DNA from: Roseobacter sp.
GTDB taxonomy: Bacteria > Pseudomonadota > Alphaproteobacteria > Rhodobacterales > Rhodobacteraceae
NCBI GenBank assembly: GCA_024636495.1
Contig: JAGXGZ010000028.1
Coordinates: 30,750 to 94,749, forward strand
Reading direction: 5' to 3'
Length of the DNA: 64,000 nucleotides
Shown here: positions 6,764 to 59,368 of the stretch, piece after piece
How the letters are laid out: each line of letters opens with the position of its first letter
Numbering within the stretch: the stretch's first letter is position 1
Translations under genes and position numbers: made by a program
Notes under the pieces: generated by a model
The model's input: only the letters and a program-made list of their open reading frames with translations
Database searches by the model: none
Told to the model about the DNA's origin: nothing

Positions 6764-7998
6764 GCTTTTTCGCAGGTCTTTTCGCTTCGGTTTTCGACAG
6801 ACGCTACAGAAAAGCCATCTCTTACGAGGTGGAAGGTCAAACGATCGAGGCGCTGTGCGAGAATTTGCTGGGCAACCATGGCGAGGTGTCAGGCAGTACC
6901 TTGGCAAGACTGATCCTTGACCGATTTGCCGCGATGGACAGCGATGAAAAGCTTTCGTTTTTCCAGTTCATGACCCATGGGCTTGAGATCGACGCAGACG
7001 CGGTTGTGGATACCTTGAACACCTACCGCGACGCGCCCTCGAAAAGCAGCTACCGCGCCTTTGCCGCCGCATGTGAGCCTAAGCGACAAGAGTTGACGCG
7101 CAGGCTAAATCAGGTCGAAGGAGGCACGGGGCAACTTGTCGCGATGCGCAAGGACTTGCTGAATTTGCTGCGCGATCACCCGCTGCTAGAGCCGTTGGAT
7201 GTCGATTTTCAACATCTGTTTGCATCGTGGTTCAACCGGGGCTTTCTGGTGTTGCGTCCCATCAATTGGTCCAGTCCAGCAGAGATACTGGAACAGATCA
7301 TTGCATACGAGGCCGTTCACGCCATCGACAGCTGGGATGATCTGCGCCGCAGGGTCCAGCCCAGAGATCGCCGTTGCTTTGGGTTTTTCCATCCTGCGAT
7401 GGCAGGGGAGCCGCTGATTTTTGTCGAGGTCGCCCTGACCAAGGGGATCCCGAATTCGGTGCAGGCGTTGCTGGCCGATGGCCGCGATGCGATTGACGCC
7501 GAAGACGCGGATACGGCCGTGTTCTACTCGATCTCGAACTGTCAGGCAGGGTTGGCCGGGATTTCTTTTGGCAATTCGCTGATCAAGCAAGTCGTTGCCG
7601 ATCTGTCGCGTGATCTGCCGGGATTGAAGCACTTTGTGACCCTTTCCCCAATCCCCAGCCTGAACAAGTGGTTGGAACGGTCAACTGGTGACGTTTCCCC
7701 AAATGATGCACCGCAAGCAGTGGCGGCCCACTATCTGCTAGAGGCAAAGCGCCCTGACGGGATGCCGTTTGACCCTGTTGCACGGTTTCATCTGGGCAAT
7801 GGCGCGTTGGTTCATGCGGTCCATGCGGATGCCGATTTATCCGCAAATGGGATGGCGCAGTCGAACGGCACAATGGTAAATTACCTTTATGATCTTTCGC
7901 AAATCTCAATAAATCACGAGCAATTCGTCACGGAAAAAACGGTTGTTGCATCAGCCGACGTACGTGCGCTAAGCGCCACCATTGCGTCTGAAGCATAG
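6760..7998 (+). CDS. matA: Malonyl-CoA decarboxylase
   Basis: AVFYSISNCQAGLAGISFGNSLIKQV, FVTLSPIP and DPVARFHLGNGA motifs; ATGA overlap with matM. Confidence 0.92.
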   Translation: MSFFAGLFASVFDRRYRKAISYEVEGQTIEALCENLLGNHGEVSGSTLARLILDRFAAMDSDEKLSFFQFMTHGLEIDADAVVDTLNTYRDAPSKSSYRAFAAACEPKRQELTRRLNQVEGGTGQLVAMRKDLLNLLRDHPLLEPLDVDFQHLFASWFNRGFLVLRPINWSSPAEILEQIIAYEAVHAIDSWDDLRRRVQPRDRRCFGFFHPAMAGEPLIFVEVALTKGIPNSVQALLADGRDAIDAEDADTAVFYSISNCQAGLAGISFGNSLIKQVVADLSRDLPGLKHFVTLSPIPSLNKWLERSTGDVSPNDAPQAVAAHYLLEAKRPDGMPFDPVARFHLGNGALVHAVHADADLSANGMAQSNGTMVNYLYDLSQISINHEQFVTEKTVVASADVRALSATIASEA

Positions 7999-8008
7999 GA
8001 ATCAAGAC

Positions 8009-29891: not shown

Positions 29892-30940
29892 TGGCTTACA
29901 CCGTTCGAACACGTACCCGCGCTTCGGGGATTGCAGCGATCATTGGGGCAGCAATAGTCCTTGCGCTGGTCTTCTTGCCGCTTTTTGCCAGCCGCTCGTT
30001 GATTCAGGACATGTTTTTGATCCTGACCATGCTGGTGCTCGCGCAGTTCTGGAACTTGCTGGCGGGCTATGGCGGGCTGGTCAGCATCGGGCAACAGGCT
30101 TTTGTCGGCATGGGGGCCTATACGCTGTTTGGCGTGGTCATTTTGGGCGGGATTGACCCGGTGGCAGCGATCTTGTTTTCAGGGCTGGGTGCGCTGATCA
30201 TTGCCATTCCCACGGCCTTTTTCGCGTTTCGCCTGAATGGCGCGTATTTCGCCATCGGCACATGGGTCATCGCCGAGGTCGTGCGCCTGCTGGTCGCGCA
30301 ATGGAAAACCTTGGGCGGTGGGACCGGCACGTCACTCCCCCGCGAGGCGACGCGCGACATGTGGTTCGTGCCGACGGTTGAGACCCTGTTGGGCGTCAGA
30401 TCTGCTGCCGCCCGCGATATCCTGGCCTATTGGCTGGCGCTTGCCTTGGCTGTCGCCACAATCGGCGGGATTTATTGGCTGCTGCGTACCCGGCGCGGTC
30501 TGGCGCTGGCCGCGGTGCGCGATAACATCGAGGCCGCAAAATCCGTTGGTGTCGATGCGGTGCGGATGAAATGGATCGTGTTCCTGACCTCGGCCTTTGG
30601 CACAGGCCTCACCGGCGGGCTGATCTACATGCAAAAGGCGCGCATCAGCCCCGATGCGGCCTTTAGCGTGACCGACTGGACGGCTTACGTGATCTTTATC
30701 GTGGTCATTGGCGGTATCGGAACGATCGAGGGCCCGATCCTTGGTGTACTGATCTTTTTTGCCCTGCAATCCTTGCTGGCTGATTTCGGCAGCTGGTACC
30801 TCATGACGCTTGGCGTGCTTGCGATCACCATCATGCTTGTCGCACCGCGCGGCCTTTGGGGCTTGCTGTCAGAGCGCACAGGCCTTCACCTTTTCCCCGT
30901 CCGGCGTCAGCTGGTCGCCCCCAAACCATCGGAGACATAA
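29891..30940 (+). CDS. ABC permease (LivM-like)
   Basis: WNLLAGYGGLVSIGQ, GAYFAIGT, IGGIGTIEGP. Confidence 0.92.
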   Translation: MAYTVRTRTRASGIAAIIGAAIVLALVFLPLFASRSLIQDMFLILTMLVLAQFWNLLAGYGGLVSIGQQAFVGMGAYTLFGVVILGGIDPVAAILFSGLGALIIAIPTAFFAFRLNGAYFAIGTWVIAEVVRLLVAQWKTLGGGTGTSLPREATRDMWFVPTVETLLGVRSAAARDILAYWLALALAVATIGGIYWLLRTRRGLALAAVRDNIEAAKSVGVDAVRMKWIVFLTSAFGTGLTGGLIYMQKARISPDAAFSVTDWTAYVIFIVVIGGIGTIEGPILGVLIFFALQSLLADFGSWYLMTLGVLAITIMLVAPRGLWGLLSERTGLHLFPVRRQLVAPKPSET

Positions 30941-33621: not shown

Positions 33622-34172
33622 AGCCTTGTTGCAAAAATCGGTCTGAGGGTGAGTGGACCCCATTTGCCAAAGGGACTTAGCCTTCTGCCGGGGTGACAGG
33701 TATGCAATAAGGGAGTAGCGGTTGAGGACCGCGTTGCGGGTTTGGATTTCCGCGACCTGCCTTTCAAAGTTTCGCGCCATGAACGACTGGCCAGTATAAT
33801 CAAACAATGCGCTTTTGTTTCAACGCGGCTTCGGCGGTGGTATCGGCGTCCCCAAATACCGTTGGGCGTAGGCCGGATCGAGGCGGCATTTGCTTCGGCG
33901 CGCGTCCACTTCCCGGCAGTGCATGCCCGCATGCTCAAGAGGGGGCTTAAAAAGGCTTGGCATTCTTGCGCGGTGGGACGACCATATGCGTGTCTTGGGC
34001 GGCAATTGCCTTGCGGCATTTACGGGTGTCATGCGCCCCGTCTTCGGTAACACTGCCGATGTGTTGATCGGATGGGATTTGGTTCAGCAGCTTGGGTAGC
34101 ATGGGTGTATGCGCGATGGTGCTGCTGATGACTACGAAGGCTCGTACTTCCCGCGTTTCGTCGTCGATACCC
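33622..34172 (-). pseudogene. Decayed 3' half of an IS5-family (IS903-group) transposase with right inverted repeat
   Basis: Fragments GIDDETREVRA...DGAHDTRKC...PPRKNAK, YHRRSRVETK and RQVAEIQTRNAVLN lie in different frames. AGCCTTGTTGCAAAAATC at 33622 resembles the IS903 end GGCTTTGTTGAATAAATC. Confidence 0.8.
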
Positions 34173-34458
34173 CCTCTCGGCAGCATGTTGTGCATGCGCC
34201 TGTCGAAACGGCAGCATGACGCTTGGCAGGCAGAACGCGATCTTCGGTCTCGTCCGAGGTTGAGGTCTTTTCGCCGCGTGTGACCCAGACTTGCAGGTCG
34301 TTGACCGCATAGACGACACGCCCCCCGATTTTGGAGTAGTGCGGGCCGGTTCCGTAGGTGCGATGTTTCTCGAGGGTGCGGCCTGAAAGGCCGAGGAAAT
34401 GGGCGGCTTCAGGGGTTCTGAGGTAGCGGGGCGGAATTCCTTCGTTGGGGTCGGGCAT
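34132..34458 (-). CDS. rdfS: AlpA/MerR-like HTH excisionase (RdfS-like recombination directionality factor); tail runs into IS DNA
   Basis: RYLRTPEAAHFLGLSGRTLEKHRTYGTGP..SKIGGRVVYAV is the typical ICE RdfS signature; GGAGA RBS. Confidence 0.85.
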   Translation of the reverse strand: MPDPNEGIPPRYLRTPEAAHFLGLSGRTLEKHRTYGTGPHYSKIGGRVVYAVNDLQVWVTRGEKTSTSDETEDRVLPAKRHAAVSTGACTTCCREGVSTTKRGKYEPS

Positions 34459-34540: not shown

Positions 34541-34576
34541 GGGATGACGAAGATCGCAACGCAAAAACGTCACCCC
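34541..34576 (-). promoter_or_regulatory. Inverted repeat upstream of rdfS, candidate FseA activator box
   Basis: GGGATGACG-N18-CGTCACCCC (8/9 match). Confidence 0.55.
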
Positions 34577-34634
34577 CTTGTTGCGGACCGATGCTGGGAG
34601 GGGAAAGTGCTGGTGAGTCAGGTGCTCTCGGTGA

Positions 34635-35138
34635 TTATTTGCGCCGTTTGTTCTGTTTTGTTGGACCTCGACCGAGAAGCAAAAGGCGATAGCCTTTGTT
34701 GGTCAGGTGCGTTCCATGGGCAGATAGGCGGATGATCTGGGCCTTAAGGGATCTGGTCTTCCAGTGCTCGCGCGACACCGCTTCCGCACCGAATAAATGC
34801 CGCGCGATTTGCTGGTAACTGGCGCTGTCCCGACGCGCATCAAGCGTGCGAAGCGCAAGCAGAATGCGGCGGCGTTGCTGCATGGTTAGGGGCGAAACTG
34901 ATCGTTTGCGGTTTGTCAGTTGTGCGTGAAGTGACTTGAGCGCTTCCAGGCGGACCGTCCAATGTTCGTCCAGTGGCAGCAAGATGCCAGCAGGGCGGTT
35001 AATTGTCTTTGCGTCCAGAACGACCAAAGCACCGGTTGGCAGACGCACATACATCTGACCGTCCTGCGTCCCGATGACGGTGAGATCATCTTCATCGATG
35101 CGGCGCAGGTGTTTCGTCTCCAGGAACTGGCGCAACAT
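34635..35138 (-). CDS. fseA: DUF2285-domain 3' part of an FseA-like activator
   Basis: ALRTLDARRDSASYQQIARHLFG...W...SLKAQIIRL...GYRLLL pattern; lies between the DUF6499 ORF and rdfS. Confidence 0.8.
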   Translation of the reverse strand: MLRQFLETKHLRRIDEDDLTVIGTQDGQMYVRLPTGALVVLDAKTINRPAGILLPLDEHWTVRLEALKSLHAQLTNRKRSVSPLTMQQRRRILLALRTLDARRDSASYQQIARHLFGAEAVSREHWKTRSLKAQIIRLSAHGTHLTNKGYRLLLLGRGPTKQNKRRK

Positions 35139-35206
35139 ATCCGACCGCCGCCGGAGCGACGGATGGGTTCCAGAACAGGCGAGCGTTTAGGGCGTCGATA
35201 TCCGGA

Positions 35207-35377
35207 TCAACCGGGAAATCGTAACCCCCATGCAGCCAGCGATTTTTGTCCTTCCCGCAACTGCGGGTAATCTGCGCGATAATCGGAATTGCGGCGCAAA
35301 CATTCCCAAGCCATCCCGGACAAATCCAGGCTCTTGAAATGTGCATATGCCGCATCGTCGCGCCAGTCCTTGGTCAT
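35207..35377 (-). CDS. fseA: DUF6499 5' part of an FseA-like activator (msi172-like), ending in a frameshift motif
   Basis: WRDDAAY, AWECLRRNSDY and AWGLRFP; GGAG RBS before ATG 35377. Confidence 0.82.
   Translation of the reverse strand: MTKDWRDDAAYAHFKSLDLSGMAWECLRRNSDYRADYPQLREGQKSLAAWGLRFPG
35213..35233 (-). other. +1 programmed ribosomal frameshift motif
   Basis: GCA TGG GGG TTA CGA TTT CCC fits the msi172-type TGG.GGN.NTN.NNN.TTT.C consensus as I recall it; the +1 frame continues FPVDPD...LFW. Confidence 0.75.
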
Positions 35378-35507: not shown

Positions 35508-35780
35508 TCAGCCTTTGCGGCCCTCTAGCAGCTTGCGGTAGCCGTGTTCCGTCATCCAACGCGCGTGGGCGAGGTGGCTGTCATAGACAATTTGAGCGCG
35601 GTCCGGTTCCTTTTCCGCATCGATTCCGAACAGAATCTGGCAGATTTCCTGTAAAGTGGCCCCGCTTTCTGCAGCATCGAATAGGCGCAGATAGAGCGTC
35701 ATGTGCGCGTGGTCATATTCGGTCAAAGAGTCGCCCTGTGGTGCAAGGTCAGAGATCGGCGCGGTGCCGGTAGTAGGCAT
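35508..35780 (-). CDS. qseM: QseM-like antiactivator
   Basis: LTEYDHAHMTLYLRLFDAAESGA...ILFGID...PDRAQIVYDSHLAHARWMTEHGYRKLL matches the QseM family; divergent from an XRE gene. Confidence 0.8.
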   Translation of the reverse strand: MPTTGTAPISDLAPQGDSLTEYDHAHMTLYLRLFDAAESGATLQEICQILFGIDAEKEPDRAQIVYDSHLAHARWMTEHGYRKLLEGRKG

Positions 35781-35871
35781 GATTCCCCCTCGCCCTTGGG
35801 GCGTTTTGGTCCATACAAGCACATCCGGTTGCGCATGCAAGGTCGGATTGCGGTCAGTCAAACTGCAAATC

Positions 35872-35900
35872 GGTATTATAATACGTCGCACCAAAATACG
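35872..35900. promoter_or_regulatory. Tandem controller-protein operators (OL/OR-like)
   Basis: GGTATTATAATACG (35872-35885) and CGCACCAAAATACG (35887-35900), 15-bp period; 13/14 and 10/14 matches to the palindrome CGTATTATAATACG. Confidence 0.65.
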
Positions 35901-35921
35901 CGATAGGCTTTTTACCTGCGG

Positions 35922-36143
35922 ATGGATATCCGCGTTATTTTTGCAAGGAATCTAAAGCACTACCGCGAACAGCGCGGGCTAACGCAGGCCGCATTGGCCG
36001 CGGCAATGGATGTCGACCGCGCCCATGTCAGCGCGATGGAGCGTGCCAAACAAAACGTGACCTTGCAGACCCTTCAGCGTCTGGCGGAGCATTTGGAGCT
36101 GGAGCCAGCGAAGCTGATCAAAGAACGTGCCGATAGCGTGTAG
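35922..36143 (+). CDS. qseC: XRE-family controller protein, QseC-like
   Basis: FARNLKHYREQRGLTQAALA...DRAHVSAMER...NVTLQTL HTH_3 pattern; no obvious SD sequence. Confidence 0.82.
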   Translation: MDIRVIFARNLKHYREQRGLTQAALAAAMDVDRAHVSAMERAKQNVTLQTLQRLAEHLELEPAKLIKERADSV

Positions 36144-36256: not shown

Positions 36257-36574
36257 CTACGGCTTGCGTGACTTGCTGCGCTGGGTCCAATCGGCCCCGG
36301 CATAGGTCACGGCGTGGATATACACCTCGCGCGCGTTGTCATCGACGGTGAAGGCGACCAAGGCCTTTCGGCCTGCAGGAATTGCGCGCAGCCCGGGCGC
36401 GATCTCATCGCGGCGACTGCCCTTGTGCGGAACGTCTGCCAAACTACCGATGGTTGCCTCTATCTCGTCCAGTCGACGCGCAGCCGATTGCGGACCGGAA
36501 TAGTCGATCAGCCAGCGCGCGATGGCACCAAGATCGTCCGCGACCGCCGGATGAAGCCGGACGCGATAGCTCAC
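36257..36574 (-). CDS. Type II toxin, RelE/ParE family
   Basis: YRVRLHPAVADDL...PHKGSRRDEIAPGLR; overlaps the upstream antitoxin. Confidence 0.85.
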   Translation of the reverse strand: MSYRVRLHPAVADDLGAIARWLIDYSGPQSAARRLDEIEATIGSLADVPHKGSRRDEIAPGLRAIPAGRKALVAFTVDDNAREVYIHAVTYAGADWTQRSKSRKP

Positions 36575-36840
36575 GCTTCGCGCGCGGCCTGCAGCCGGGC
36601 CCGTGCAGGGGCAAACGTGTCCTCGGCCGAAACATAGTCAGCACGCGGTGTCTCAAGACGCACTCTGATCTCCTCGGCCATCGCCCCAAGGGCCAACTCG
36701 CGTTCTTCTTCATCACGGATCATCTGTTCAAGCGCCGTCGCGACAGCCGCGCTTTGTGAAGCGAAAACGCCTTGTCCGACCTTGTCGGTAAGGAACCGAT
36801 GGTGGCGGTCGGTGAAGCTCAGCGTTGTTTTGACGGTCAT
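36571..36840 (-). CDS. ParD-like ribbon-helix-helix antitoxin
   Basis: KTTLSFTD...G.FASQSAAV RHH pattern, acidic tail, GGAGG RBS. Confidence 0.82.
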   Translation of the reverse strand: MTVKTTLSFTDRHHRFLTDKVGQGVFASQSAAVATALEQMIRDEEERELALGAMAEEIRVRLETPRADYVSAEDTFAPARARLQAAREA

Positions 36841-37056: not shown

Positions 37057-37788
37057 CTATTTATTTTGTTGTGTTCGATTGTAAAGCTCGCGGACAAAAA
37101 CTGAATGCTGCCCTTTCTGAAATACAACATGTAGCTCTTGCTCTGAGCGGGTCACGGCGACATAGAATTCACGCTTTTCAGCGTTCATCTTATTCGGATC
37201 GCTCTTGCTTCGCCAATTTGGTATTACGTCATTGTTCATTCCCAGCAGGGTGACAGCGCGAAATTCTCGACCTTTTGAACTGTGAAACGTGCTTAGGTTA
37301 ATAGCGCCAGTTCCGGAAGAGTATCCACAAAACTGAGCCATTTTGAGGTCCGCGCCGCCTTTCTTGGCGGGGTCTGTCCTCCCAATCATTTCATCTACAT
37401 TATCCCAGTGTTCCGATATCGTGCGCGTTCGAGCAAACCAAGGTGATAAAATATCGCGTTTGAAGTCGAGCAGCCAAGAGTGGGTCGAGGCCGCCCCGTC
37501 CATAGGGATAAGGAAGGTAATGAGCTCATGTTCAATTTGGCGCTTCTCCTCATCCGAGGCGGTCCCGCCGTACACCAAAGAAATCGCATCATAGTAAAGC
37601 CGCTGAAATCTTGGTTCAGCAGTTTTCCAACCTCCGACAACCCATTGAGCGCATCTTTCTACAAACCTCGAAACTGGCGAGTTTCTCTTTATCAGGGCTT
37701 TGTTGTCTGCCCGTACCACTGGCACACCTTTGAAACCGGAGGCCGTCGAACTCAGCCTGCAGGCGATGTTCTTTGCTGGGCTTTCCAT
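37057..37788 (-). pseudogene. Chimeric ORF: short ICE-derived N-terminus fused to the C-terminal half of a UvrD/SF1 helicase
   Basis: Motif V STFHSSKGREF and motif VI REFYVAVTRSE present, no Walker A/B; low GC; GAGGAGG RBS before MESPAKNIACRL. Confidence 0.7.
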
Positions 37789-37816
37789 CGATGCCTCCTC
37801 TCTTTGGTGGGGATGG

Positions 37817-37845
37817 AAAAAGGGCCCACCGTTTCCGATGGGCCC
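37817..37845 (-). terminator. Intrinsic terminator after parB
   Basis: Minus strand reads GGGCCCATCG-GAAA-CGGTGGGCCC-TTTTT. Confidence 0.7.
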
Positions 37846-37904
37846 AAGGTGTCCGGTGGGGCGGGCGGCCTGGGGGACGGTTTGGGCCCGACCAACCGGA
37901 TGCG

Positions 37905-39965
37905 TCACTCGGCAGCTGTCTTGGCGAAGGCGTCCGTGGCGACGGGATCATCGTCGCCCGACACTTCGGAATCTCCGATAGCCGGTTCGCCGCCGTCTTC
38001 CGCCGTTTGCTCTTCGCTTGTGTTGGTGTCTTCAACCGAAGCCGATTCATCGAGGTTGTCGACTAGTTCGAATGCCGGGCCATCCTCCGCCGGCAGTGGC
38101 GGCGTGCGCAGCGGTTCCGGCAGCCAGCCGGTGCCCGCCAGCAGATCCTCTGCAGCAGTGACCATCTCCGGCTTCTTGAGGCCTGAGATGCGGTCGGCGG
38201 CGTTCTCGCCCTTCGCTTCGTGAACGGCCTCGAGGATGCGGGCCTTGGTCACGCGACCGAGATAGCTGTCGCCCGTTACCACCCAGCCAACCTTGGCCAT
38301 GTCGAGCCCGACAGTCCCGGCCAGCACATCCGCATGCGCGATCGCGTGGGGGCGGCGCTGGTAGGGATCGTGGACGGCATTCACGCTCATCGCCACGCAG
38401 TGTGCGAGCAGCGCCTCGCGGCTGCAACTGTCGAACTCGGTCAGCGCCTCCCAGAGGTCTTCCGACGCCTTGGGCAGATTGCGCGCCCAGGTCTCGTGCC
38501 GCTGATCGATGGCCTGCGCATAGGCCGTGTCGCCAAGGCCCAGCACTTGCGACCCGAAGGCCGCGTTGCGCGGTTCGATCTCGACGCAGCTGTCGATGCC
38601 GTAACGGTAGAACAGCCGTAAAGTCATCGCATGGAGCGCCGCGAGGTAAGCGGCCTGCGGGTCCTGCGCCAGTGCATTGCGAAGCGCCAGAGTGCGATGC
38701 GCCGTCAACTCCATGATGAGGCGGTCGGAGAGCGGCTTGAGGCCATCTTCTTCCTCCTCGTCTTCGGCGGCGGGCGCGACGGTGTCGTCCGCATCCTCGA
38801 CGATCTGAGTTTTAGCATCGGCGTCGCCGGTCTCCTCCATTTCCTCGACCAGTTCGTCTTCAGCCCGCACATGGCCGCGCTCGACGCGCAGCCGCCCAGA
38901 ACTGTCGATGCTGACAAAGGCACCCGCCAAGGCCAAGTCTACCGCCTCGAACCGGATCGGGCGGTCCTGTAATGCTTCCATCGCCGTCTCGATTTCCCCG
39001 AGCCGTGCGTCGACCTCATCGGGCAACTCATCCACCTCGGCATGGTCGGCCTCGAGCGCGTCGTATTCGGCTTTCAGTGCCTGATAGTCGGCGGCCTCAA
39101 CGTCGCTCATCGGCTCTGCCTCGCCATGAATGCGCCGCATGCCAAAGGTGTGCCCATAGGGAAAGTCGGTGTCGACCTCGACCCACTTCCAGCCCTCGGC
39201 CCGGATCACTGCGGCCTCCTCGGCCAGCTTTTCGGTCACCATGACGTCGAGTAGGCTGGCGTCTTGCAGCCAGCCGCCGTCATCCTGCTGGAACAGGTCG
39301 CGCAGGATGTCGCCCCCGGCCTCGACATAGTTGTCGAGCCCCACGAACTGCGCCCGCTTGTCCGAGGCCCGCACCGCGCCCTCGGTCAGCATGCGGCGGA
39401 TTTCGTAGGGCTGCTTGGAATAGTGCCGCTGCAGCGCCTCCCAAACCTGTTCCTGCCGCGCGTGGTCAGGGTTGACCGTGAAGGCCATCAGCTGGTCGAG
39501 CGTCATTTCCTCCTCGGCGTAGACGTCATGCAGCGCGGGTGCGACGGCGGCGAGCTTCAGCCGCTGCTTGACCACGCTGGCCGAAACGAAGAAGGCGGCG
39601 GCGATCTCCTCCTCGGTGCAGCCCTTCTCGCGCATCGCCTGAAACGCGCGGAACTGGTCCAAAGGATGCAGCGGTGCGCGCTGGATATTCTTAGCCAGGC
39701 TGTCTTCTTCCGCGAGGCCATCCATGCGCACGACGCAGGGCACAAGGGCAGTCTTGTTCAGACGCTTCTGCTTTACGAGCAGCTCCAGCGCCCGGAACCG
39801 CCGCCCACCGGCTGGGATTGTGAACATGCCGGTCTCGGCACCGTTGTCGTCCAGCACGGGCCGCACGGTGATCGAGGCCAGCAGCGTCCGCCGGGCGATA
39901 TCCTCGGCCAGCTCCTCAATCGACACGCCCGCCTTGACGTGGCGCACGTTCGATTGGCTGAGCAT
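37905..39965 (-). CDS. ICE ParB/RepB/Spo0J-like protein, 5'-truncated
   Basis: LSQSNVRHVKAGVSIEELAEDI, GGRRFRAL and LHPLDQFRAF motifs; the usual ~20 N-terminal residues are replaced by DUF932 DNA. Confidence 0.8.
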   Translation of the reverse strand: MLSQSNVRHVKAGVSIEELAEDIARRTLLASITVRPVLDDNGAETGMFTIPAGGRRFRALELLVKQKRLNKTALVPCVVRMDGLAEEDSLAKNIQRAPLHPLDQFRAFQAMREKGCTEEEIAAAFFVSASVVKQRLKLAAVAPALHDVYAEEEMTLDQLMAFTVNPDHARQEQVWEALQRHYSKQPYEIRRMLTEGAVRASDKRAQFVGLDNYVEAGGDILRDLFQQDDGGWLQDASLLDVMVTEKLAEEAAVIRAEGWKWVEVDTDFPYGHTFGMRRIHGEAEPMSDVEAADYQALKAEYDALEADHAEVDELPDEVDARLGEIETAMEALQDRPIRFEAVDLALAGAFVSIDSSGRLRVERGHVRAEDELVEEMEETGDADAKTQIVEDADDTVAPAAEDEEEEDGLKPLSDRLIMELTAHRTLALRNALAQDPQAAYLAALHAMTLRLFYRYGIDSCVEIEPRNAAFGSQVLGLGDTAYAQAIDQRHETWARNLPKASEDLWEALTEFDSCSREALLAHCVAMSVNAVHDPYQRRPHAIAHADVLAGTVGLDMAKVGWVVTGDSYLGRVTKARILEAVHEAKGENAADRISGLKKPEMVTAAEDLLAGTGWLPEPLRTPPLPAEDGPAFELVDNLDESASVEDTNTSEEQTAEDGGEPAIGDSEVSGDDDPVATDAFAKTAAE

Positions 39966-40363
39966 CGGTGGTTGGTAAGTCCGTATTGGAGGTTGATGCC
40001 CGCCAACGGCGCGGGCAATTGACGCAGATAGGCGGCAGGCGCGCCGACGAGGCTGGATAACTGCCCAAAGCTCCAATGCGTTGGCGCGATGGGTTCGTCG
40101 GCACCGGGCAAGACGAGCCCCAACTTCTCAGGATTATCACGATGCGCCTCGACGCGGATCGCAGCGCTTTCCACCGTGCGCGTCCGGCTGCGCTCGGCCC
40201 GGCCCTTCACCGAAGCGAAGAGGTCGTCGAGCGACAGATACCGCTCGTCATCCGGCCGCGAGAACCATTCGGACGACACGCGGTCCACGTTTGTGCCGCG
40301 CGACACATCCACTTTGTAGCCGCCGTTGATGTCACGCCCGGCATCGATAATTTCGGTATTCAT
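39966..40363 (-). pseudogene. N-terminal third of a DUF932-family protein, truncated by deletion
   Basis: SSEWFSRPDDERYLSL and PTHWSFGQL...APAAYLRQLPAPLAGINLQYGL; homology ends at the parB junction. Confidence 0.8.
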
Positions 40364-40454
40364 GGATTTTCTCCTGCGACGGGCGGCCGAAACCCTCTCT
40401 CTCGACCTCCAAACCCGTCACGGACCGGGAAAGCGTTCCTCTCACTCTCTGTGA

Positions 40455-41543
40455 TCACTCGGCTGCTAGGTGAGCGGACGGGAACGACGCGCGCGCCGCG
40501 GCTAGGCCATGCAACGCTTCCGGCCGAATATGCGTATAGCGGCGCAGCATCTTCCAATCCTTGTGCCCGGTAACCAGCGCGACCTGTTCGATGGCGAAGC
40601 CTGCTTCGAACAGACGACTTGTGCCTTCATGTCGCAAGTCGTGGAAGTGCAGGTCCTTGATATTGACCTCCACGCAGGCGCGCCGGAAGGCTGTTCCGAC
40701 AGATCGCGAATTGTAGGGAAACATCCGGCCCGTCGCGCGCCTAAGCTCCTTGGCCTGCGCCGTAACCAGCGCCCAGGCGTCGAACCCGGTTGCGGCAAAG
40801 AGCGGGATCCGCTGGTCGTTGCCAGTCTTGTTGCGCGGATCTTTCCGGTCGCGGATTAGGAGCATGCGCCGATCAAGGTCGAGATCCGTCCATTCGACCC
40901 GGTAAATCTCGTCGAGCCGCATCGCGGTGGCCACTGCAAACTGCACGATCCTAGTCATTGGCAGGGTGAGGCGTTCGTTGTCATCGAAGCAGCGGAAGAG
41001 CCGGTTCAACTCATCCTTAGTGGGTCGGCGATCCCGCTCGGTGCCCTTGCCGATCAGCCCGAGACGCTTGAGCGCAACACGGGCCAGATCAACGGGTTCC
41101 GAGGAGATGTCGAGGCCGTGTACGGCTGCAGCATGGGTTATGATCATCTTGGTTACGCCGATATCGATGCCAAGTGTCACCGGACCTGCGCCTTGCTCCG
41201 CGCGCATCTTGCCATAATCGATCATCTTTTGGCGATCCAGGTGCCCGATCCGTTCCTTGCCCAGATCGCGCTTCAAGGCGGAAAGGGTCGCGGCCTTGCT
41301 GCGGCGCGGTGGTTTGCCTACCTCGCACATATCGATTATGTGAAGATCGATGAGATCGCCAAAAGTTGCAAGGCGGGACACGGATGACTTGTTCGGGGCC
41401 AACCCCTGATCCACTCGGGTCTCGGCCTGGCGGGCCCAGCGGTGGGCGTCATCGCGCAGGAGAAATGTCTTGCTCGCGTAGCGGCCCTTTCGTCTGATCT
41501 GGACCCGGTAAGCACCGGAGGGGAGTTTTGTGATGGAGGCCAT
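40455..41543 (-). CDS. int: Tyrosine integrase, dusA-associated type
   Basis: AMRLDEI (R), RKDP (K), HDLRH, GH and RRYTH (Y): catalytic set appears intact; divergent from dusA. Confidence 0.92.
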   Translation of the reverse strand: MASITKLPSGAYRVQIRRKGRYASKTFLLRDDAHRWARQAETRVDQGLAPNKSSVSRLATFGDLIDLHIIDMCEVGKPPRRSKAATLSALKRDLGKERIGHLDRQKMIDYGKMRAEQGAGPVTLGIDIGVTKMIITHAAAVHGLDISSEPVDLARVALKRLGLIGKGTERDRRPTKDELNRLFRCFDDNERLTLPMTRIVQFAVATAMRLDEIYRVEWTDLDLDRRMLLIRDRKDPRNKTGNDQRIPLFAATGFDAWALVTAQAKELRRATGRMFPYNSRSVGTAFRRACVEVNIKDLHFHDLRHEGTSRLFEAGFAIEQVALVTGHKDWKMLRRYTHIRPEALHGLAAARASFPSAHLAAE

Positions 41544-41656
41544 TTTCGTGTGCGCTGTGTGTGCAATGAGTCGTCGTAGAGGGGCAAATTCGGGGGTATT
41601 GGGGCGTAGTGCAGCGTAGCAGCAACCGCCGCCAACAGTTTAAAGATACACAAAAA

Positions 41657-42658
41657 ATGCAAATAAATCAACACGCTAGATTATCTATTGCGCCTATGAT
41701 GGATTGGACAGACCGCCATTGCCGCTATCTGCACCGGCTCATGTCCAGACACGCGCTGCTTTACACCGAAATGGTGACGTCGCCCGCGCTTGTGCGTGGT
41801 GGGGCGCTTCATTTGTTGGATCACAACCCGCAAGAGCATCCTGTCGCGTTGCAATTGGGGGGATCGGACCCGGACGAACTGGCCGAGGCCGCCCGGATTG
41901 GTGCGCAGGCGGGATATGATGAGATTAACCTTAACGTTGGCTGCCCGTCTGACCGGGTGCAATCGGGCAGTTTCGGCGCTATTTTGATGGAGCAGCCTGC
42001 GCTTGTGGCCAAATGCGTGGGCGCGATGCGCCGTGCGGTTGACGTTGAGGTGACTGTGAAGTGTCGCATTGGCGTGGATGATCAGGATCCCGAAGACATA
42101 CTCCCCGAGTTTCTGGCCCATATCGTGGGCGCAGGCTGCGAGCGGGTGACGATCCATGCGCGCAAGGCGTGGCTTAAGGGGTTAAGCCCCAAGGAAAACC
42201 GCGACATCCCGCCTTTGGATTACGATCTGGTGCACCGGATGAAGGGGCTGTTTTCGAACCTGCACATCTCGGTCAATGGGGGAATAACGAGCCTTGATCA
42301 GGCGGAGGCATTCCTAGAGGGTGGCCTTGACGGCGTGATGATCGGGCGCAGCGCCTACCACAATCCTGCGGAAATCCTTTGCCAGGCGGACCGGCGTATT
42401 TTTGGCAAAGGCGAAGACACAACTGCGGAAAATGCCGTTCAGCAGATGTTGCCCTATATTGACGCGCATATTGACGGGGGCGGCAGGCTTAACCAGATCA
42501 CCCGTCATATGATGGGGCTGTTCGCGGGGCGCCCCGGTGCGCGGATCTGGCGGCGGATGCTGTCGGAAAACGCCTCAGGGCCGGGGGCGGACCGTCAGGT
42601 TTTGCTGGATGCGCTGGATGCGATGCAAACGCTGGCAGAGGCGCAAGAAGCGGTGTAG
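41657..42658 (+). CDS. dusA: tRNA-dihydrouridine synthase A
   Basis: APMMDWTDRHCR, LYTEM, EINLNVGCPSDRVQSG, VKCRIG and HARKAWLKGLSPKENR motifs. Confidence 0.95.
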   Translation: MQINQHARLSIAPMMDWTDRHCRYLHRLMSRHALLYTEMVTSPALVRGGALHLLDHNPQEHPVALQLGGSDPDELAEAARIGAQAGYDEINLNVGCPSDRVQSGSFGAILMEQPALVAKCVGAMRRAVDVEVTVKCRIGVDDQDPEDILPEFLAHIVGAGCERVTIHARKAWLKGLSPKENRDIPPLDYDLVHRMKGLFSNLHISVNGGITSLDQAEAFLEGGLDGVMIGRSAYHNPAEILCQADRRIFGKGEDTTAENAVQQMLPYIDAHIDGGGRLNQITRHMMGLFAGRPGARIWRRMLSENASGPGADRQVLLDALDAMQTLAEAQEAV

Positions 42659-58257: not shown

Positions 58258-58844
58258 CCAGACCTATGATGTCTGTGTCAAAGCACACCACCAACGGGCG
58301 CGACAGCGCCCGTGACGTGGCCGTCTGGGACCCGCTGGTGCGGTTGATCCACTGGTCCTTGGCCTCGATGATCCTGTTGAACGGGGCCATCACCGATGCG
58401 GAAAGCGACCTGCACCAATGGGTGGGGTATGTCGCCATTGCCCTGGTAGGGATTCGCCTGACTTGGGCGCTCGTTGGCCCCAGACCTGCACGTTTCGTCA
58501 CTTTCCCTCCCAGTCCGATGCGCGCGTGGCGCTATGTCCGTGCTGTTCTTGCGGGTGATCGCACCGTGCATCTGTCGCACAACCCCTTGGGTGCGTTGAT
58601 GGTCTATAATCTGTGGCTGACCGTGATAGCCTTGGGGATGACCGGATATATGATGACGACCCTGCGGTTTTTCGGTATCGGTTGGGTGGAACAGGCGCAT
58701 GAACTGGCCTTTGACTGGTTGCTGTTTTCTGTCGCCTTGCATGTTGGCGGTGTTGCGTTGGACAGTTGGCGGTCGGGCGTTAATCTTGTGCGTGCCATGG
58801 TAACGGGGCGCAAGGCCATCCCTAAGGGAACAAAGCTGGAATGA
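58254..58844 (+). CDS. Cytochrome b/b6-domain membrane protein
   Basis: VWDPLVRLIHW, HQWVGY, HNPLGA, HE and LHV heme-ligand pattern. Confidence 0.9.
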   Translation: MTRPMMSVSKHTTNGRDSARDVAVWDPLVRLIHWSLASMILLNGAITDAESDLHQWVGYVAIALVGIRLTWALVGPRPARFVTFPPSPMRAWRYVRAVLAGDRTVHLSHNPLGALMVYNLWLTVIALGMTGYMMTTLRFFGIGWVEQAHELAFDWLLFSVALHVGGVALDSWRSGVNLVRAMVTGRKAIPKGTKLE

Positions 58845-59368
58845 CATCCTCGACCGCACCGGCCACCTTAAAACAAAGGCGCGCAACGTTTCTGGCGGGA
58901 CTTATCCTGCTGCAAGCGCTTTGCGCGCTGTTTTTTGTCGGGGACGTGGTCAGAGACCTGCGGGAGGGCACACATCTCGACGATATCCATCTGATGCTGG
59001 AAAGCATTGCTGCGGTGTCCCTGATCGGGGGTGTCGGTTTCTTGATGATCGAGTTGCGCCGCCTTCTGGCTCGGATGGAGCATATGGATGCCGGTCTGCG
59101 CGTCGCACAAGGCCAGATGGTCATCGTGATGGAGGGGTTTTTTGACGAATGGCATCTGACCCAAGCGGAACGCGATGTGGCGCTGATGATCCTTAAGGGG
59201 TTGGACAATGATTCAATCGGCACGGTCAGGCACACGGCCCCCGGCACGGTGCGCGCGCAAGCCGCCAAGATTTATGCCAAGTCAGGCACGAACGGGCGGG
59301 CGCAATTTGTCAGCATTTTCATGGAAGAACTGATGTCAGGCGATTTCAACACCTCTGATCCCGCCTGA
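58841..59368 (+). CDS. Membrane-anchored LuxR-type HTH regulator
   Basis: Two N-terminal transmembrane segments; LTQAERDVALMILKG...TVRAQAAKIYAKSG. Confidence 0.88.
   Translation: MTSSTAPATLKQRRATFLAGLILLQALCALFFVGDVVRDLREGTHLDDIHLMLESIAAVSLIGGVGFLMIELRRLLARMEHMDAGLRVAQGQMVIVMEGFFDEWHLTQAERDVALMILKGLDNDSIGTVRHTAPGTVRAQAAKIYAKSGTNGRAQFVSIFMEELMSGDFNTSDPA

Follow-up and report, generated by a model that had tools for sequence, protein, structure and literature searches.

A 64,000-nucleotide stretch of Roseobacter sp. DNA (positions 30,750 to 94,749 of contig JAGXGZ010000028.1, assembly GCA_024636495.1; hereafter the window) carries two divergent genes, qseM and qseC, with a predicted double operator between them. 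We propose that this locus is the published QseC/QseM transfer switch of integrative and conjugative elements (ICEs), here with another QseC subfamily and lacking traR/traI, and located in the remnant of an ICE that had inserted at dusA in a Sulfitobacter-like member of the Rhodobacteraceae. With the mechanism taken from homology and promoter geometry, we give this reading a probability of about 0.72. The kind of switch is already known, and both the difference between QseC subfamilies and the lack of traR/traI are noted in the literature. What the locus adds is that the exact promoter geometry, with operator centres at -43.5 and -28.5 relative to the qseC start codon and 15 bp apart, is held across QseC subfamilies whose operators are unrelated. 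The published model can thereby be tested a second time, independently of operator sequence, and with a well-defined operator consensus. For specialists the noteworthy features are this strict geometry, a cassette boundary that coincides with the left edge of the strong operator, a predicted qseM -10 element inside that operator and a hairpin at the qseC start codon.

Gene identities and operator layout

The qseC-like gene (35922-36143, plus strand) encodes a 73-residue helix-turn-helix (HTH) regulator of the XRE/controller-protein type (Pfam HTH_3, E=1.3e-14). Its matches in the Protein Data Bank (PDB) include C.AhdI (1Y7Y, E=4e-8) and QseC (9XZ9, E=2e-7, aligned from residue 1); in the latter alignment about a third of the residues are identical to QseC from R7A, which places the protein in a distant subfamily. 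Neither the N-terminus MDIR nor the helix DRAHVSAMER varies among its 114 homologues with at least 56% identity. On the opposite strand, the qseM-like gene (35508-35780) encodes 90 residues with a single DUF2285 domain (PF10074, E=1.3e-9) and is a predicted antiactivator of the activator FseA. The protein matches the QseM structure 7UQT with E=9e-19 over 78 of its 90 residues, and no DUF6499 motif is present in this open reading frame (ORF). A toxin-antitoxin reading of the XRE-DUF2285 pair was dropped once the structure matches to QseM and QseC had been obtained. The pairing is widely kept: in 78 of 81 loci the XRE gene is preceded by a divergent QseM-like ORF, and the remaining three contigs are too short to tell.

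The intergenic region between the two genes (35782-35921, 140 bp) contains a 33-bp operator block (35870-35902). Within it, a script identified the perfect 12-bp palindrome GTATTATAATAC at 35873-35884, which carries TATAAT on the plus strand (35877-35882) and on the minus strand (read from 35880 to 35875). This is the predicted high-affinity site, OL. The predicted low-affinity site, OR (GCACCAAAATAC, 35888-35899), is a degenerate copy that agrees with the palindrome at 8 of 12 positions and lies downstream at a centre-to-centre distance of exactly 15 bp. The centres, 35878.5 and 35893.5, fall at -43.5 and -28.5 relative to the qseC ATG; for a transcript starting at this ATG, OR would span -34 to -23 and hence the -35 region. 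The block is nearly symmetric about T35886 and in the wider family follows the layout Z3-OL-GTC-OR-Z3*, with complementary outer trinucleotides CGC...GCG. A spacer of 19 nt (35903-35921, plus strand), T-rich at -12 to -9, connects the block to the ATG and is the expected place of a weak, activator-dependent -10 element. It holds no Shine-Dalgarno sequence, only a GCGG directly 5' of the ATG. A standard repeat search of the intergenic region reported nothing; it is blind to the palindrome because the 6-bp arms abut.

Judged inside the window alone, the palindrome and its copy are weak evidence. The 64 kb hold 19 perfect 12-bp palindromes, and an 8/12 copy has a probability of about 0.005 at one fixed offset and of about 0.15 once plausible offsets are allowed.

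The initial annotation of this sequence had already named the two genes and proposed two operators with a 15-bp period, a strong palindrome and a degenerate copy, in a Roseobacter-type genome. Its gene coordinates are correct, and its assignments are borne out by the lone DUF2285 domain and the 7UQT match on one side and by the C.AhdI and 9XZ9 matches on the other. The palindrome with TATAAT on both strands and its degenerate copy 15 bp on are present as described and conserved in 80 loci (see below), and a perfect palindrome next to an 8/12 copy agrees, at the level of sequence, with one strong and one weak site. The block, whose end had been set at 35900, indeed stops 21 nt upstream of the ATG (35922) of an XRE gene lacking a Shine-Dalgarno sequence. 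The prediction that the second copy would cover the -35 of a leaderless transcript likewise agrees with the span of OR given above, and, as we read it, the same geometry recurs in a locus of the R7A type.

Conservation of the operator block

To place the block in its family, 80 genome loci with relatives of the XRE protein were fetched from Rhodobacteraceae, Hyphomonadaceae, Maricaulis and others. The block, with the consensus cGC-GTATTATArTrC-GTC-GCAyyAAAATAC-GCGAT, is found upstream of the XRE gene in all 80, without gaps, and this conservation establishes the block as a real feature. Identity was quantified between the window and 49 distant loci, whose XRE proteins are 56-62% identical to that of the window. 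The 33-bp block is 83% identical, the coding DNA 63%, its third codon positions 42% and the left flank 24.5%, which is the random level. The 15-bp spacing between OL and OR is invariant and the spacer from block to ATG is fixed at 18-19 nt throughout the family; counted from the central T, the ATG lies 36 nt away in 74 loci and 35 nt away in seven. The second copy of distant relatives, GCATTAAAATAC, agrees with the first at 10 of 12 positions, which supports its description as a degenerate copy.

DNA similarity between the window and the distant loci sets in precisely at 35873, where OL has its left edge, and runs into qseC, while the qseM side cannot be aligned. Operator and qseC therefore travel together as one cassette. 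This suggests that the two are exchanged as a unit, in line with the recombination reported at qseC loci (PMC8627217), and the cassette is found on ICEs free of quorum-sensing genes in marine Rhodobacteraceae, Hyphomonadaceae and Maricaulis.

Comparison with known systems

The mechanism of the switch has been published for ICEMlSymR7A of Mesorhizobium japonicum R7A (PMC8789080, PMC4755241). A locus of this type (L081), retrieved through the QseC sequence, has the gene order traR-traI-msi172-msi171, qseM on the opposite strand, qseC and qseC2. By our own reading of its sequence, which agrees with the description in PMC8789080, the region upstream of qseC contains the perfect palindrome AGGAACGATCGTTCCT and, 15 bp downstream, the degenerate copy GAACGATAGTTC, with centres at -43.5 and -28.5. 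Both systems thus combine a divergent qseC, encoding an HTH protein similar to controller (C) proteins, with a qseM encoding a lone DUF2285 domain, and in both a palindrome and its degenerate copy occupy identical positions in front of a start codon without a Shine-Dalgarno sequence. However, the operator sequences are unrelated (GTATTATAATAC here and GGAACGATCGTTCC in R7A), only about a third of the QseC residues are identical, and the window has neither traR/traI nor qseC2.

Searches by tblastn with TraR and TraI of the R7A type gave no match, either in the whole 64 kb of the window or up to 8 kb from qseC in any of the 80 loci, and Pfam scans of the ORFs in the window returned no Autoind_bind or Autoind_synth domain. 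The absence of traR/traI nearby, on which the initial annotation had based a quorum-independent version of the switch, is thereby supported, but such a version is not new: numerous ICEs carry QseM and FseA without any quorum-sensing genes (PMC4755241), and the neighbour of qseM on alphaproteobacterial ICEs comes from at least six QseC/C-protein families (PMC8789080).

The controller proteins of type II restriction-modification systems, of which C.PvuII (Sorokin et al. 2009, PMC2632904), C.AhdI and C.Esp1396I are representatives, resemble the window protein in being small HTH_3 proteins, and C.AhdI is its best PDB match. Their promoters also have a double-box operator whose outer trinucleotides are complementary (in the wider family of the window block, CGC...GCG) and whose upstream copy is nearer to consensus than the downstream one, followed by a short fixed spacer (18-19 nt here) to a start codon without a Shine-Dalgarno sequence and by no recognisable -10 element. 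For leaderless C-protein genes this spacer is typically 17-18 nt (PMC2632904). In contrast, the block measures 33 bp here and 35 bp there, and the regulator in the window is paired with a gene for an antiactivator of ICE transfer. Among the scanned ORFs no restriction or methylase gene was seen, the neighbours being qseM, fseA, rdfS, parDE and ParB-like genes. A full-text search for the operator strings returned unrelated primer matches only; it did not cover a prior drawing in the 2013 paper with the original OL/OR mapping (Ramsay et al.) or the site lists of Sorokin et al.

Proposed mechanism of the switch

From the homology to the published system and the identical geometry we infer that QseC binds the block, activates its own gene, represses qseM and fills OR cooperatively, and that the circuit is bistable. 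QseC dimers would bind the strong palindrome OL at -43.5 and activate a weak promoter whose start coincides with the qseC ATG or directly adjoins it. The same event would block transcription of qseM, because OL contains the predicted qseM -10 element TATAAT. At higher QseC levels a second dimer would occupy the weak OR at -28.5 cooperatively, over the -35 region of qseC and near that of qseM. With qseM switched off, the antiactivator QseM would no longer sequester FseA; the latter, made by a +1 ribosomal frameshift, would then activate the rdfS promoter and so lead to excision and transfer. In the window this downstream chain is broken, with a deletion in fseA, loss of the 3' end of rdfS to an IS5-associated truncation and no conjugation gene.

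Promoters and transcript ends

The minus-strand TATAAT within OL (35875-35880) predicts a qseM start at about 35868. This hexamer persists in 52 of 61 non-redundant loci, among them those in which the plus strand reads TATAGT or TATAGC, whereas the plus-strand TATAAT (35877-35882) is kept in 39 of the 61. On the basis of this better conservation we read the minus-strand hexamer as the -10 element of qseM. Its position inside the strong site implies that a single QseC dimer on OL would occlude the qseM promoter. The predicted element is central in OL here, whereas in R7A the qseM -10 lies at the edge of OL.

Evidence on transcript ends comes from assembled metatranscriptome contigs placed on L050, a distant relative of the Hyphomonas/Oceanicaulis type. 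Its minus-strand TATAAT at 7954-7959 predicts a start at about 7947, and in two runs of a single sample the qseM-side contigs stop at 7946 and 7948, 6-8 nt past the hexamer. These ends are in modest agreement with the minus-strand hexamer as the qseM -10. On the other side, the best-covered contig starts at 8011, that is, at +11 with the ATG at 8001, and the 64 bp between the qseM-side and qseC-side contigs are uncovered in three of four runs. The RNA-derived contigs, found in marine metatranscriptomes (runs X23-X26), lie on both the qseM and the qseC side of L050 (7300-8600). In run X24 the depth downstream of qseM toward fseA exceeds that on qseM itself, a hint at a separate fseA promoter.

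These data bear on a competing model, a plain autorepressor similar to Cro or CI, in which the XRE protein shuts both divergent promoters and qseC is transcribed from the plus-strand TATAAT in OL, with no activation and no bistability. The presence of this hexamer in 39 of 61 loci, the lack of a recognisable -10 near the qseC ATG and a hairpin at the start codon, which implies a leadered transcript, all speak in its favour. Yet the plus-strand hexamer degrades to TATAGC in many loci in which the minus-strand TATAAT stays, and no conserved -35 is found upstream of it, where the left flank is at random identity. Moreover, the -43.5/-28.5 geometry and the spacer of 18-19 nt match promoters of activator-type C proteins and QseC, and the best-covered qseC-side contig of L050 begins at +11, not about 33 nt upstream as the model predicts. 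We therefore consider a plain autorepressor unlikely.

The start-codon hairpin and the leaderless transcript

The qseC start codon is embedded in a predicted RNA hairpin, UGCGGAU-GGAU-AUCCGCG (35917-35934, plus strand; -9.0 kcal/mol, z=-2.3), which pairs positions -7 to -1 with codons 3-5. Across the family, compensatory changes occur at the pairs -4/+12 and -5/+13, and some members have 9-bp stems that include G·U pairs. The covariation score of 0.219 exceeds that of shuffled alignments (0.130±0.015; none of 500 shuffles reaches 0.219) and of slid controls (at most 0.164), although the 3' arm is coding sequence and kinship among the sequences inflates the shuffle statistics. RNAalifold keeps just the four inner pairs (-2.3 kcal/mol), and the hairpin is absent in one group of loci (L071). 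Should the hairpin form in RNA, some transcripts at least would have to start upstream of the ATG. The missing Shine-Dalgarno sequence, the 18-19-nt spacer and the qseC-side contig of L050 from +11 are in favour of a leaderless qseC mRNA, which we regard as no more than probable.

The hairpin also speaks for a two-promoter switch, in which a basal promoter at the plus-strand TATAAT would yield a leadered, hairpin-locked mRNA that seeds very low amounts of QseC, the activated promoter would yield a leaderless, translatable mRNA, and QseC at OL would swap one transcript for the other. The compensatory changes and G·U wobbles fit a plus-strand RNA structure, and the plus-strand TATAAT is present. 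There is precedent in C.PvuII, which has a weak, C-independent promoter upstream of the C-dependent leaderless one. However, RNAalifold supports four pairs only, the L071 group does without the hairpin, the coding 3' arm and the relatedness of the sequences weaken the statistics, and an upstream transcript is unseen in three of the four L050 runs. This arrangement, which would make the plus-strand hexamer (35877-35882) a basal, QseC-independent promoter of a leadered qseC transcript, is speculative and in our judgement even less likely than the autorepressor. Taken on its own, an extra translational layer is doubtful as well: the hairpin would lock the start codon in transcripts that begin upstream, for example at the plus-strand TATAAT, and only the QseC-activated leaderless mRNA would be translated efficiently. 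If true, such a layer would sharpen the threshold of the switch, and a C-protein-type circuit on an ICE would for the first time be seen to use leadered and leaderless mRNAs as alternatives.

That the palindrome is a chance occurrence, or the shared bidirectional -10 of two constitutive promoters without any regulator, would agree with TATAAT on both strands and with the chance-level count of 19 perfect palindromes in the window, but is highly improbable given that the conservation extends over 33 bp, including the second copy and GC-rich flanks far past a -10 hexamer, that the block travels with the XRE gene, with distant homology starting exactly at 35873, and that the recognition helix DRAHVSAMER of the XRE protein is invariant.

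Several observations nevertheless weigh against the QseC/QseM switch as we propose it. A sigma-70 consensus scan found no promoter, and qseC has no recognisable -10 or -35, which is typical of C-protein promoters but adds no positive support. The predicted qseM -35, TCGCGT, is poor, and the central trinucleotide of the block is GTC, where GTG or CTG has been described for C.PvuII-like motifs. A partly covarying hairpin over -7 to -1 fits poorly with a strictly leaderless mRNA. The L050 contigs are strandless and may lose their ends, and those of one run span the 64-bp gap. In a closer relative (L007), the metatranscriptome contigs stop at 7954/7961 and 7983, which puts the breaks about 31 nt inward from where the conserved block begins and ends; we rejected these breaks as transcript ends, since they are expected from assembly-graph branching among variants, and the relative is thus uninformative. 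Finally, the assignment of OL and OR in the R7A-type locus is our own reading of its sequence.

Element context and decay

Downstream of qseM and in the same direction lies an fseA-like activator gene (34635-35377, minus strand), which encodes DUF6499 and DUF2285 domains (PF20109, PF10074) and is a likely pseudogene. Its +1 frameshift site, a conserved G-rich/UUUC motif at 35207-35229 (GGGGGTTACGATTTCCCGGTTGA), is intact; the UUUC site of fseA has been described in PMC4755241. However, compared with 14 of 14 relatives (region 35093-35106), two nucleotides are deleted at 35099/35100. The deletion disrupts the frame into which the programmed frameshift leads, and full-length FseA can therefore not be made. 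Further on, an inverted repeat, GGGTGACG...CGTCATCC (34541-34577, minus strand), conserved in distant loci, marks the predicted FseA-responsive promoter of rdfS. As FseA has been reported to bind an inverted repeat upstream of PrdfS (PMC10359603), this repeat is probably the FseA binding site. The linked fseA with its UUUC frameshift site and the rdfS promoter with an inverted repeat are shared with R7A. The gene arrangement is different: qseM, fseA and rdfS are adjacent and co-directional here, whereas the fseA gene of R7A is found downstream of traI2 and converges on qseM.

The rdfS-like excisionase gene itself (HTH_17; 34132-34458, minus strand) has had its 3' end replaced. Homology to every one of the 80 related ICE loci breaks off at 34200-34211, within rdfS, and a fragment of an IS5-family transposase (33947-34195, minus strand; NCBIfam NF033579, positions 145-217 of the 289 in the profile only) abuts the truncation. 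In the intact relative L005, by comparison, a 93-residue RdfS is followed by DUF2840, traF, an SLT transglycosylase, a relaxase, traG and copG; an rdfS-traF-SLT-relaxase operon is thus a further likeness between R7A and intact relatives of the window element. No relaxase, coupling-protein or type IV secretion gene is present in the window, where positions 1-33600 encode catabolic, metabolic and transport functions.

Metagenome data indicate that the decay is recent. In two independent runs, contigs are identical to the window over both lesions, and a third (X3) contains a variant, 95-99% identical, with GA inserted behind 35099 and divergence left of 34200. The window copy is therefore a recently decayed derivative of an intact ICE, which sets it apart from the R7A element. 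Together, the fseA deletion, the rdfS truncation and the lack of conjugation genes mean that the switch is probably without output. The initial annotation, which had placed a switch at this locus, was right in that qseC, qseM and the operators are intact; what it had overlooked is that the element is a remnant, with rdfS cut at about 34200 and fseA lacking two nucleotides. We consider the intact genes and operators most likely a recent relic, and the message for the annotation of this genome is a decayed ICE remnant rather than a working transfer switch.

The right end of the element is formed by a tyrosine integrase gene (Phage_integrase; 40455-41543, minus strand), which directly adjoins dusA (41609-42658, plus strand; DusA family match) and is transcribed away from it. 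This is the known pattern of elements that target dusA. Farrugia et al. in 2015 are said to have described ICEs and genomic islands in the 5' end of dusA, placed there by DusA-associated integrases. Unlike such elements the remnant is truncated, and a second copy of the attachment site (att, the 5' end of dusA) was not found in the window, where only chance 12-mers matched. A megablast search against plasmids gave no close relative of the island. The DusA protein is 90-93% identical to Sulfitobacter proteins, which identifies the host as a Sulfitobacter-like member of the Rhodobacteraceae and agrees with the Roseobacter-type genome proposed earlier.

Neighbouring genes

To the right of qseC, a parE/antitoxin pair (36257-36840) converges on it across a 113-bp gap in which no terminator-like site was found. 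Read-through from parDE could run antisense to qseC, reminiscent of the antisense promoter in R7A. In most close relatives a 428-residue ORF without a Pfam match (8349-9635 in L005) is located between qseC and parDE; it is missing from the window. Beyond the pair there are further signs of decay. One is a fragment of a UvrD C-terminal domain (37057-37908). The 723-residue ParB-like ORF in the region 37057-40423 is apparently fused at its 5' side to sequence that lies about 1 kb away in relatives. This fused part has one plasmid match (39966-40096), within a gene annotated as a DUF932 protein, and the short piece 40369-40424 matches relatives at a second place.

At 58841-59368, 16 kb outside the island, the window encodes a small LuxR-type regulator that consists of GerE only and has no autoinducer-binding domain. 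Near the opposite end, at 40-2775, lies the gene for a 911-residue RTX-repeat protein with a C-terminal Hint_2 domain.

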